This document shows, piece by piece, positions 4,074-21,847 of a stretch of DNA of 64,000 nt. The notes beneath the pieces are model-generated. The model searched no databases, was not told the origin of the DNA, and saw nothing but the letters and a program-made list of their open reading frames with translations. Position 1 is the stretch's first letter, and every line of letters starts with the position of its first letter. The DNA comes from Candidatus Xianfuyuplasma coldseepsis. Its GTDB lineage: Bacteria; Bacillota_I; Bacilli_A; Izemoplasmatales; Izemoplasmataceae. Location of the stretch: assembly GCF_014023125.1 (NCBI RefSeq), contig NZ_CP048914.1:708698-772697 (forward strand), in the 5' to 3' direction. The translations under genes and the position numbers were made by a program.

Positions 4074-4150
4074 TGGTAGCGGTGACAGGATTTGAACTGT
4101 ACCAAAGATTTAGAGACCCAAAATGTAATACTTACTCTACCTCCACATAA
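4074..4150 (-). pseudogene. Degenerate tRNA-like remnant, roughly 75% identical to the 3' half of tRNA-Trp. Probably an old att scar.
   Basis: The reverse complement ends ...GGTACAGTTCAAATCCTGTCACCGCTACCA. This T-arm and 3' end resemble tRNA-Trp (GTACGGGTTCAAATCCTGTCACCCCTGCCA), but the acceptor stem cannot pair and the anticodon arm is degraded. Confidence 0.5.
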
Positions 4151-4763: not shown

Positions 4764-4767
4764 ATAG

Positions 4768-4815
4768 TGGCAGGGGTGACAGGATTTGAACCCGTACTAA
4801 CGGTTTTGGAGTCCG
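4768..4815. repeat. attL: 48-bp direct repeat copying the 3' end of tRNA-Trp (47/48 identical to 21773-21820)
   Basis: TGGCAGGGGTGACAGGATTTGAACCCGTACTAACGGTTTTGGAG(T/A)CCG is present at both positions. Confidence 0.85.
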
Positions 4816-18869: not shown

Positions 18870-19430
18870 ATGAGAATAGGATATATGAGAGTATCAACAG
18901 TCGCTCAAAACTTAGATACACAGAAAGCGGCTCTGGAATCATATGGAGTAGAAAGAATCTTTGAAGAGAAAGCGTCTGGAAGAAACATTGAAAGACCAGT
19001 CCTTAAGGAGTTGCTTAAGTTCATCAGATCAGGGGACACGCTTGTAATATATGATTTATCTAGACTGGGTAGGACAGTACATCAAGTTGTAAAATTATTA
19101 GATGACTTCATAAAAAGAAACATTGGTTTCGTATCGCTTAAGGAATCACTGGACATAACCACACCGATGGGTAAAGCAATGGCACACATAATTGCAGTGT
19201 TTAATCAAATGCAAGTGGATGTTCAAAATGAAAAGACTAGAGAAGGACTACTAATCGCAAAAGCAAATGGTAAAAAACTTGGGAGAAAAGCCATTACTCA
19301 AGATAAGATTCTAATGATACAAGCATTATGTAAAGAAGGGTATTCGAATCAAGAAGTTGCAGATAAATTAGGAGTCTCAAGAAGAACTGTAATTAACTAC
19401 AAGAAGGGCTCTAAACAGATAAAAAACTAA
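18870..19430 (+). CDS. Small serine recombinase (resolvase/invertase family)
   Basis: MRIGYMRVSTVAQNLDTQ N-terminal catalytic motif (S10), and a C-terminal HTH (GYSNQEVADKLGVSRRTV). 186 aa. Confidence 0.85.
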   Translation: MRIGYMRVSTVAQNLDTQKAALESYGVERIFEEKASGRNIERPVLKELLKFIRSGDTLVIYDLSRLGRTVHQVVKLLDDFIKRNIGFVSLKESLDITTPMGKAMAHIIAVFNQMQVDVQNEKTREGLLIAKANGKKLGRKAITQDKILMIQALCKEGYSNQEVADKLGVSRRTVINYKKGSKQIKN

Positions 19431-19749: not shown

Positions 19750-20196
19750 CTACATCCATCTTTCTTTTAGTTTGTGTGAAGCTGACAAAATATTAGCAAC
19801 CTTTAGCATCAATGCCGATTTGATACTAATCAAATCTGCTGACAGTTTATTTAGTTTCTCAGTATCTGCTTCAGAGATACTGTTTTTATTTACTGAATCT
19901 TCCTCCAACCTTTTATGGTGTTCCACAAAATCATATGTTTTCATATCAAATAACACGCCTAACTCAGTAATTGTGAGGTCGCTAAAATCACTGTCAGGAA
20001 TGTCTTTAATGAAAAAGGCTTGAACGGGATAATGGTAGAAATCTGCTAGCCTTTCCAAAATATCAAAAGGAATATTCCTATCACCTAATTCATATCTACT
20101 GTAGTTTTGTATCCTGATATCTAAGTGTTGAGCTATATCCTTTTGCCTGAATCCTTTTTGTTTCCTTAGTGTTCTAAGATTGTTGCATATGTTCAT
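19750..20196 (-). CDS. XRE-family HTH transcriptional regulator (repressor-like)
   Basis: HTH_3 motif LRKQKGFRQKDIAQHLDIRIQNYSRYELGDRNIPFDILERLADFY. Confidence 0.8.
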   Translation of the reverse strand: MNICNNLRTLRKQKGFRQKDIAQHLDIRIQNYSRYELGDRNIPFDILERLADFYHYPVQAFFIKDIPDSDFSDLTITELGVLFDMKTYDFVEHHKRLEEDSVNKNSISEADTEKLNKLSADLISIKSALMLKVANILSASHKLKERWM

Positions 20197-20229: not shown

Positions 20230-20305
20230 TCACCATTTTGGTGAATATTTCTTCAAACCTATACACCCCTGAATTGAAAAACTAATTTATTCACCGTTTT
20301 GGTGA
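20230..20305. promoter_or_regulatory. Two copies of the 15-bp palindrome TCACC-N5-GGTGA (20230-20244 and 20291-20305), centres 61 bp apart. Candidate operators of the XRE repressor in the XRE/int divergent region.
   Basis: TCACCATTTTGGTGA and TCACCGTTTTGGTGA are both perfect 5-N5-5 inverted repeats. Confidence 0.45.
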
Positions 20306-20450: not shown

Positions 20451-21683
20451 ATGAAGGAGTTGATAAAAGTGAAAATGAATCAAGCCCTAGATAATTTTTT
20501 AAAGCTGAAAGAGGCAACGTTTAAACCTGAAACTGTAAGATACTATAAAGGAAAGATACCTACGATTAAGAAGTTCATGGGTAATCTAGATGTTGAAGAA
20601 GTAACAGATGTTGACATTGCAGACTTTCTACTCAAACTCAAAGAAAGAAACCCGGAAATCTCCAAACGAACACAAAGGAAATACGTTGACATCATCATGA
20701 GTATAGTCAACAAAGGAAAAAAAGAAGCTGATAAACTTAAATTTACCAGACCAAAACCTGTTTTGAAAAAGATTAAAAAGGTATCAGATGAAAACATAGC
20801 TCTGATACTTAATTACTATGTATCAAATCTTAGCTATGCAAATAATCACAAGTACTACTTGTTAATCAATCTTCTTCTTGATACAGGTGTCCGCATTAAT
20901 GAACTAGTAAACATTAAGATGAAGAACATCAATCTATCTATGAATAGCATCCATCTAGATGTGACCAAGACAGATTCAGATCGAACTGTGTATTTTAGTG
21001 ATAGGACAAGACAAATACTTCTAAGCTACATTAACAAACACATTGATGGTCACGAATATCTCTTCTACAGCCAGGATGGTAAGGGTCATATTCATAGAGA
21101 CTCTGTATACAAATCTATAGCGAGATTGCAAAAAAGACTAAACATAAAACAATCAATAAGTCCACATAAGTTTCGTCATGCTTTTGCAACAAAGCTTCTT
21201 AGAAAAACAGGTGACATCGAAGTGGTAAGACAATTGCTTGGGCATAAGCATCTTGAAACCACACAAATATATCTAGACTATGAAGACGAGTACTTGAAGA
21301 AGGTCTACGATAAAGCAATGAATAACAATGGTATGTATAATGCCAAAAATCAAAATAAGGAGGATCAAGATTTGAGCAAAGCTAAAGTACTTCAAGATCA
21401 TTATCAAGTGAAATGTGATGTGTGTAACACAGACATAAACACTCCAAAAGATGACATACAGATATATTGTCCAAAATGTGGATCAGTTATCACAGTGTTA
21501 CACGATAAAGACAATCATGCTTATGCAATTGAAACCGGAGTTCTTGTTGCATCTTCATTTCTCCCTGGAGAACCTAAGAAATATGTTATACACAAAGATG
21601 GTAATCGAGGTAACAATAACGTTGCAAATCTACAATGGAGCGATCACCCCGACTATCCAAGCCAAGATAAACAAATCAACTAG
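20451..21683 (+). CDS. int: Tyrosine site-specific integrase with a C-terminal Zn-ribbon plus HNH_3-like extension
   Basis: R (TGVRINEL), HKFRHAF, and LGHKHLETTQIYLDY catalytic motifs. The C-terminal roughly 120 aa contain CDVC...CPKC and HKDGNRGNNNVANLQW. The true start is possibly GTG 20469 or ATG 20475, after AAGGAG. Confidence 0.85.
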   Translation: MKELIKVKMNQALDNFLKLKEATFKPETVRYYKGKIPTIKKFMGNLDVEEVTDVDIADFLLKLKERNPEISKRTQRKYVDIIMSIVNKGKKEADKLKFTRPKPVLKKIKKVSDENIALILNYYVSNLSYANNHKYYLLINLLLDTGVRINELVNIKMKNINLSMNSIHLDVTKTDSDRTVYFSDRTRQILLSYINKHIDGHEYLFYSQDGKGHIHRDSVYKSIARLQKRLNIKQSISPHKFRHAFATKLLRKTGDIEVVRQLLGHKHLETTQIYLDYEDEYLKKVYDKAMNNNGMYNAKNQNKEDQDLSKAKVLQDHYQVKCDVCNTDINTPKDDIQIYCPKCGSVITVLHDKDNHAYAIETGVLVASSFLPGEPKKYVIHKDGNRGNNNVANLQWSDHPDYPSQDKQIN

Positions 21684-21772
21684 GTAATACATAAAAATGG
21701 TATGTACTAGCGGTCATTTCAAGACTAGAGCAAATAAAAAAGCAAACCTAATGGCTTGCCTAAGCTCTTAAG

Positions 21773-21847
21773 TGGCAGGGGTGACAGGATTTGAACCCGT
21801 ACTAACGGTTTTGGAGACCGCTGTGCTACCATTGACACCACACCCCT
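21773..21847 (-). tRNA. tRNA-Trp: tRNA-Trp (CCA anticodon), the integration target
   Basis: Reverse complement AGGGGTGTGGTGTCAATGGTAGCACAGCGGTCTCCAAAACCGTTAGTACGGGTTCAAATCCTGTCACCCCTGCCA. The acceptor stem pairs, and the anticodon loop is CTCCAAA. Confidence 0.9.

Follow-up and report, generated by a model that had tools for sequence, protein, structure and literature searches.

A zinc-ribbon and HNH_3-like small gene joined in frame to the integrase gene of a tRNA-Trp island in Candidatus Xianfuyuplasma coldseepsis

We analyzed a window of 64,000 nucleotides (nt) of Candidatus Xianfuyuplasma coldseepsis (the whole stretch of DNA under study, from contig NZ_CP048914.1), in which an open reading frame (ORF), present at 20451-21683 on the forward strand, joins a tyrosine integrase gene (int) to a C-terminal tail with similarity to zinc ribbons and to HNH_3-type homing endonucleases. 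The integrase would be that of a ~17-kb defence island integrated into tRNA-Trp. The explanation that we favor, with moderate confidence, is an accidental read-through fusion between this island integrase and a nuclease-dead small protein that is probably also expressed separately. A 369-bp segment with a small homing-endonuclease-derived gene would have inserted at the extreme 3' end of int. This gene, formerly free-standing, would comprise a zinc ribbon and the N-terminal half of an I-HmuI/HNH_3-type homing endonuclease, with its own ribosome-binding site (RBS) and a TTG start. The int stop codon would have been lost through the insertion and, the 16-codon leader being by chance open and in frame, ribosomes on int would continue through to give an integrase-linker-zinc-ribbon/HNH_3-like product of 404 amino acids (aa), while the internal start would additionally give a free 103-aa protein. 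The module would then have no nuclease activity and could serve at best as a binding domain on a tether, the fusion would be a recent accident that is selectively neutral or mildly tolerated, and the integrase would still act by normal tyrosine-recombinase chemistry at its 46-bp attachment (att) site in tRNA-Trp. Residue numbers throughout count from the ATG at 20451 unless the 404-aa model is named.

The tail is confined to the window among the integrases searched. A search of 5.8 billion proteins gave about 120 integrase homologs, none of which covers more than about 70% of the query; the closest are 231-314 aa long and end 0-16 residues from a YDKxM motif. Among 344 phage records with an integrase match, none covers at least 80% of the query. 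None of these homologs or phage records carries the tail, for which a survey of integrase homologs had been proposed in the first-pass annotation, a model's reading of the letters alone. The closest homolog (P0002, 285 aa, 68% identity) is encoded by a metagenomic contig, L001, with the same gene order as the window: hsdS, hsdM, a helix-turn-helix (HTH) gene, resolvase, int, tRNA-Trp, tRNA-Tyr, and a P-type ATPase. In L001, int terminates in YDKFMN*, followed by ...CATAAAAAATGCATATACTAGCGGTCAT, and the matching sequence of the window is found only after the stop codon of the tail; the downstream sequence CATAAAAA..TACTAGCGGTCAT is common to both. The window exceeds L001 by 369 bp, in frame, that is, 123 codons. 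Because the syntenic int ends at YDKFMN* and the downstream sequence is common, these 369 bp are an insertion in the window lineage. The tail had been taken for an extension of the integrase itself; this fits neither an inserted gene in which a Shine-Dalgarno sequence and a start codon of its own are retained nor a syntenic relative that lacks the tail.

The insert is flanked by a direct repeat with the consensus ATAA[C/A]AATGGTATGTA at 21322 and 21691. The left and right copies are identical at 15 of 16 positions (18 of 21 when extended leftwards), and the simulated chance of such a match between two 60-nt junction zones is ~5.5e-5. Two readings of the junction are possible: either the target was duplicated, the ancestral int ending in ...KAMNKNGMY*, or the insert entered the last Asn codon, the present AAC-TAG being the ancestral stop context, as in L001. 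Elsewhere in the window, neither the insert nor the tail protein has a second copy. The 16-bp repeat motif was not found beside the free-standing relatives described below, so that a mobile cassette is not definable. An integron-cassette origin was considered and rejected, as only 7 nt lie between the stop codon and the right repeat, too little for an attC site.

The inserted sequence still looks like a gene of its own. The 16-codon connector between the integrase and the tail was probably the 5' leader of the inserted gene, judging from its sequence, and it ends at a TTG codon (21372) preceded by the Shine-Dalgarno motif AAGGAGG; in the window, this motif is almost always a genuine RBS, for in 17 of its 18 occurrences a start codon follows at a distance of 4-12 nt and begins an ORF of 63 codons or more. 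Directly upstream of the internal start, a search for a sigma-70-like promoter was negative. Three free-standing proteins (P0141, P0157, and P0270; 107-113 aa, 37-44% identity to the tail) are collinear with the whole tail from the TTG codon, which aligns exactly with their Met1, 14 residues before CDVC; they share the pattern CxxC...CxxC, the motif KK(Y/F)xxHxDGNxxNNxxxNLxWSxxPD, and the equally early end. Residues 288-308 of the 404-aa AlphaFold model have a predicted local distance difference test (pLDDT) score below 50, and this disordered linker makes the tail a tethered separate domain. By chance alone, in-frame insertion together with an open 16-codon leader is expected with a probability of about 1/3 x 0.40 = 0.13, so selection is not needed to explain the fusion.

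Counted from the catalytic tyrosine, Y274, 136 residues follow, of which ~17 (to N291) are the usual integrase C-terminus; the extension proper is 119 residues long (292-410). The figure of about 120 extra residues is thus right for the extension and wrong only as a count from the tyrosine. The two cysteine pairs reported earlier are present (CDVC at 322-325 and CPKC at 340-343), with a spacer of 14 residues, not 19. Zinc-ribbon matches are individually weak (Pfam, E = 0.002-0.03; LysW in the PDB, E = 0.01), the four cysteines are invariant in the three full-length relatives, and the arrangement of two CxxC knuckles on beta-hairpins, conserved in these relatives, identifies a predicted zinc ribbon. 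The quoted HNH_3-type motif is HKDGNRGNNNVANLQW, at residues 381-396. Pfam HNH_3 (PF13392) scores 24.5 bits with the whole protein and 26.2 bits with the tail alone, against a gathering score of 24.8, covering only profile positions 14/15-39 of 46. The HNH-endonuclease families 59, 959, and 1492 of PHROG match the tail with E values of 7e-9 (59), 2e-8 (959), and up to 3.5e-6, the phrog_959 match ending at position 101 of 138, and the PADLOC 'HEase' model aligns its positions 10-93 of 178 with tail residues 8-91 (E = 7e-7). The chance expectation of a 119-codon open frame in this AT-rich DNA is ~1e-3. Judged by these profile matches, the HNH_3 similarity of the tail exceeds chance, though the match is partial. 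Conserved cysteines and the Pfam, PHROG, and PADLOC matches thus agree with the two elements first seen by eye, a zinc-ribbon-like element and an HNH_3-homologous segment; the accompanying 'AP2-type' label has to be dropped, as no AP2 family, including the AP2 DNA-binding domain (PF00847), is among the Pfam matches at E <= 10 for either the whole protein or the tail.

Structure prediction and wider searches point to the same ancestry. A tail-only AlphaFold model built from a 9-sequence alignment reached a pLDDT of 87 and a predicted template modeling (pTM) score of 0.74, and a Foldseek comparison of this model with viral models returned almost solely phage HNH/NUMOD4 homing endonucleases or unnamed proteins, with template modeling (TM) scores of ~0.44. 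A word-indexed homolog search with the tail alone gave zero relatives, and an exhaustive HMMER search was required to find them. Phmmer against 1.84 billion representative proteins gave 958 matches at E <= 1e-3; among the 150 matches listed, most are long proteins with 2-6 matched stretches each, and repeated HNH_3-like units were seen in four of the six matched proteins whose sequences were read. The top phmmer matches P0076, P0215, P0224, and P0230 are long proteins, and many such matches carry 2-6 tandem NUMOD4/HNH_3-like units. Of the units in these four proteins, some stop at NLEWS/M.. and lack the metal-binding 'EN'; canonical units occur only in P0076 and P0215, and there only in part. 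From these sequences, it seems that multi-unit proteins reuse truncated HNH_3 units as non-catalytic modules.

Whether the tail could cut DNA was assessed against I-HmuI. In His-Me finger nucleases, the histidine is the general base, which in I-HmuI is hydrogen-bonded by Asn87; the metal is bound by the residue before the histidine (Asp in I-HmuI) and by a distal residue (Asn in I-HmuI), and in the HNH enzyme HpyAV cleavage is abolished when either metal ligand is mutated (PMC2816704). The alignment is ungapped: VVD74-H75-KDGNKDNNLST-N87-LRWVTQKI-N96 of I-HmuI pairs with YVI380-H381-KDGNRGNNNVA-N393-LQWSDHPD-Y402 of the tail. The catalytic histidine is intact, H381 aligning with H75, as N393 does with N87, and both residues are invariant in the small family. 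At the -1 metal-ligand position (D74 in I-HmuI), the tail has I380 and the three relatives have K; at the distal position, +21 (N96, the 'EN' of HNH_3), the tail has Y402 and the relatives have L or F. The protein ends 14 residues past NLQW, with two prolines in this stretch, and the AlphaFold model has no helix after NLQW. Since both metal ligands are replaced and the protein ends before the catalytic helix, the nicking at the att site that had been suggested for the extension is unlikely. We accordingly consider it very improbable that the tail is a working HNH nickase cutting at or near att or at a homing site. Such an enzyme would have the conserved general base His381 and Asn393, an HNH_3 score for the tail alone that lies over the Pfam gathering score, a conserved Asp at +20 (D401) with D398 and H399 nearby, and the precedent that a single metal ligand suffices in some His-Me nucleases (PMC2816704), but it would have to work with non-ligands at both canonical positions, a feature shared with the free-standing relatives, and with a proline-containing end for which no helix is predicted; moreover, the homing-endonuclease profiles are only about half covered.

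A further explanation is that the fusion is adaptive, the zinc-ribbon/HNH_3-like domain having been recruited as a site-recognition or protein-interaction module by a Xer-like integrase that lacks an arm-binding domain; the module might aid att recognition, synapsis, or directionality. We regard this as unlikely. It would suit a compact, confidently modeled domain on a flexible tether, derived from the DNA-contacting N-terminal half of I-HmuI-type enzymes and attached to an integrase that has just core-binding and catalytic domains, and the multi-repeat HNH_3 proteins, which reuse similar units without the catalytic 'EN', are compatible with non-catalytic roles. Against it, a single genome has the fusion and the syntenic relative is without it, a recent insertion is indicated by the flanking repeats and by the retention of the internal RBS and start, the domain is near-neutral or acidic, no integrase gene adjoins the free-standing relatives on their contigs of 0.9-9.4 kb, and an in-frame outcome is expected by chance at the rate given above. 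A related proposal, which we hold to be quite doubtful, gives the module a genuine accessory function in mobile defence islands, as the domesticated and nuclease-dead remnant of a homing endonuclease. Both tethered and as a translationally coupled free protein, it could assist the integrase in site recognition or directionality; alternatively, it could be an accessory factor of the type I restriction-modification (R-M) systems that adjoin free-standing relatives in contigs L006 and L011. If so, the fusion would capture the moment at which a recombinase recruits a selfish endonuclease gene. Extra DNA binding by the tail, which had been put forward together with nicking, is possible, on grounds of ancestry.

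The apparent fusion might also have been created by an assembly error, namely a homopolymer indel in the 48-nt connector (e.g., in the A5 run at 21345-21349). In the +1 frame, translation of int would end at a TGA (21373-21375) overlapping the TTG at 21372 (TTTGA), and two coupled genes would result; the genome, for which one assembly only exists, was assembled with Canu from Nanopore R9.4 and MiSeq reads (PMC8397711). We nevertheless give this explanation hardly any credence. The A5 run is short, the alignments of HsdM (495 aa) and HsdR (1047 aa) with their orthologs span the full lengths in single high-scoring segment pairs without frameshifts, and the 795-aa P-type ATPase is intact, so the local indel error rate is low. 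Even if an error were present, the insertion and the captured gene would stay real.

Several observations weigh against the accidental read-through fusion that we prefer. The small family keeps H381, D383, N393, and the conserved Asp at +20 (D401), so that a non-canonical active site with a single metal ligand keeps a small probability. The tail has an isoelectric point (pI) of 6.2 and a net charge of -2, compared with a pI of 9.4 for the equivalent region of I-HmuI; this near-neutral character weakens a DNA-binding role and counts against simple electrostatic binding. The three relatives look conserved rather than decaying, and the module thus has some function; the ratio of nonsynonymous to synonymous substitution rates between P0157 and P0270 (dN/dS = 0.39, few sites) gives a hint of purifying selection. 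The free 103-aa protein is probably made from the internal start, a point read from the sequence only. In addition, the fusion occurs in one genome only, so selection on the fused form is not measurable, and the origin of the 16-bp flanking repeat lacks an explaining mechanism.

The surroundings of the relatives were compared with those of the tail. On their contigs (0.9-9.4 kb), no integrase adjoins the small gene. P0157 and P0270 (113 aa) are encoded just downstream of type I R-M operons (L011 1285-8997; L006 3-4348), and in both contigs the small gene is followed by a conserved 199-aa ORF of very hydrophobic sequence. HsdM of L011 is 82% identical to that of the window, and HsdM of L006 only 31%. 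It should be noted that L006 and L011 come from related strains and represent one locus (90% DNA identity over the flank that they share); at most, then, there is a single independent R-M co-occurrence. The adjacency may reflect a defence hot spot of variable content or an actual connection of the small family with type I R-M. A locus search with the family alignment gave no confirmed locus in genome or viral contigs, and metagenome contigs gave only an already-known contig. Either the small family is rare, then, or the search patterns were too restrictive. More distant truncated HNH_3 proteins (P0273 and P0274) are encoded on contigs of many short ORFs without family matches, phage-like by appearance, which would fit an origin from free-standing homing-endonuclease genes.

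The ORF can be set beside several known systems. Compared with the I-HmuI/HNH_3 (PF13392) homing endonucleases of phages, which have NUMOD4-type N-termini (PDB 1u3e), the tail has a CxxC-x14-CxxC zinc ribbon instead of the NUMOD4 beta-hairpins, is without either metal ligand (the Asp preceding the catalytic His and the distal Asn), lacks the catalytic helix and all C-terminal DNA-binding modules, and sits behind an integrase. The remainder of the protein resembles the small Xer-like integrases (PF00589) of tRNA-integrated islands in its R-K-H-R-H-Y set, its SAM-like core-binding and catalytic domains, the position of its gene next to a 46-bp att repeat over the tRNA-Trp 3' end, and the accompanying HTH repressor and operator-like palindromes; the difference is the extra C-terminal residues, found in no homolog. 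The free-standing proteins P0141, P0157, and P0270 are unnamed and have no Pfam match on record; they differ from the tail in being separate genes with an ATG start and in a C-terminal ..(E/D)LGF that is missing from the tail. In the zinc-ribbon HNH nicking endonucleases of phages and prophages (PMC3592412), too, a small protein of mobile elements unites a zinc ribbon and a domain of the HNH superfamily. Their catalytic His-Asn-His domain is reported to have its own [CxxC]2 zinc site, and they are reported to be encoded beside cos sites and terminase genes; by this description they are set apart from the tail, which is of HNH_3 type, has no metal ligands, and stands in another context.

No integrase-HNH_3 fusion was described in the literature searched, and none of the other proteins searched has this architecture, which bears out the initial remark that a tyrosine recombinase combined with an HNH-like module is unusual. 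The architecture is unusual, then, but the evidence lends no support to functionality of the fusion. Should the fusion protein be produced and active, nature would have supplied a tyrosine recombinase with a domain of homing-endonuclease origin, and with it a way to study the recruitment of selfish endonuclease genes as binding modules. The locus documents how such architectures may originate: a promoterless small gene with its RBS, bounded by flanking repeats, enters the last codons of another gene and is read through. It also flags a small unannotated family of zinc-ribbon/truncated-HNH_3 proteins, and carries a lesson for annotation, in that an HNH_3 match should not be taken as nuclease activity.

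The integrase itself is canonical. Its product matches, at 100% identity, the NCBI protein 'tyrosine-type recombinase/integrase [Candidatus Xianfuyuplasma coldseepsis]', which is annotated with 402 aa on a 1.96-Mb contig. The ORF counts 410 codons from its first in-frame ATG (20451), and two other starts are candidates: the ATG at 20475, used in the NCBI annotation, and the GTG at 20469. From sequence comparison, the GTG is probably the true start, since the closest homolog, P0002, begins with MKMNQ and an AAGGAG (20454-20459) sits 9 nt upstream. Pfam Phage_integrase (PF00589) matches residues 130-278 (E = 4e-35; 121.5 bits against a gathering score of 27.1), the SAM-like N-terminal domain scores slightly under its Pfam cutoff, and the best match among the PHROG integrase families has E = 1.8e-47. 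The TTQIYLDY motif with the catalytic tyrosine, pointed out in the first-pass annotation, is found at residues 270-277. The six catalytic residues occupy invariant or nearly invariant columns of a 32-sequence alignment, and the Arg-Lys-His-Arg-His-Tyr set is intact. In the full-length AlphaFold model, pLDDT exceeds 90 across most of residues 1-270 and drops to 65-83 near residue 290. The NCBIfam equivalog scores are below cutoff for XerA (174.9 vs 220), XerD (134.9 vs 329.6), and XerC (131.2 vs 335), and the integrase is therefore not an ortholog of the chromosome-dimer resolvases; a role as XerC, XerD, or XerA was rejected on these scores and on the position of the gene inside an att-flanked island. 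A role in hsdS phase variation was set aside, as the gene sits at the end of this island. The features are collected in Table 1.

Table 1. Coordinates of the integrase-fusion ORF, its parts, and the associated repeats in the window
Feature	Position	Strand	Remarks
Integrase-fusion ORF	20469..21683	+	Probable start GTG 20469, 404 aa; TAG stop at 21681-21683
Canonical Xer-like tyrosine integrase	20469..21323	+	Residues 7-291; R148, K173, H239, R242, H265, Y274
Left direct-repeat copy, ATAACAATGGTATGTA	21322..21337	+	Inside the coding frame
16-codon connector, NNGMYNAKNQNKEDQD	21324..21371	+	Missing in L001; predicted disordered
Internal Shine-Dalgarno sequence, AAGGAGG	21357..21363	+	8 nt upstream of TTG 21372
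Putative captured small gene, zinc ribbon and truncated HNH_3-like domain	21372..21683	+	103 codons from TTG; full-length homology to P0141, P0157, P0270
Zinc-ribbon element, C322-x2-C325-x14-C340-x2-C343	21414..21479	+	
HNH_3-like core, residues 374-397, PGEPKKYVIHKDGNRGNNNVANLQ	21570..21641	+	H381 and N393 kept; metal-ligand positions I380, Y402
Right direct-repeat copy, ATAAAAATGGTATGTA	21691..21706	+	Followed by CTAGCGGTCAT, common to L001
att repeat, integrase end	21771..21816	.	Overlaps 3' part of tRNA-Trp (21773-21847, minus)
Distal att repeat	4766..4811	.	46-bp perfect direct repeat with 21771-21816

The att repeats bound the ~17-kb genomic island, with int at the tRNA end, and their overlap with tRNA-Trp next to int is indirect evidence of recombination at an att site. 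The island encodes a RecA-like ATPase, a single-stranded DNA-binding (SSB)-like protein, a SHOCT protein, a ribonuclease-like protein, HTH proteins, PIN_12, AbiGi, a complete type I R-M system (HsdR/S/M), DUF4357, a serine recombinase, an HTH repressor, and the integrase; this cargo is a defence-type set. The serine recombinase (Resolvase and HTH domains, 186 aa) is encoded at 18870-19430 on the plus strand and has a counterpart in the same position in L001 (181 aa); it could serve inversion, resolution, or a second mobility function. Two palindromes, TCACC(A/G)TTTTGGTGA (TCACC-N5-GGTGA), were found at 20230-20244 and 20291-20305, against 0.02 expected by chance, both confined to the intergenic region between int and the divergent HTH repressor gene (19750-20196, minus strand). 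Their sequence and placement make it likely that they serve as operators for the expression of the integrase. The 17 bp at 4081-4097, ~700 bp outside the distal att repeat, match the att segment 21780-21796 exactly and may be a remnant of an older integration. Finally, a terminator-like hairpin with a T-run (21740-21761, minus strand) lies directly downstream of tRNA-Trp, between this tRNA and the end of the fusion ORF, and a hairpin was read by eye at the equivalent position of L001; the hairpin may terminate both convergent transcripts.

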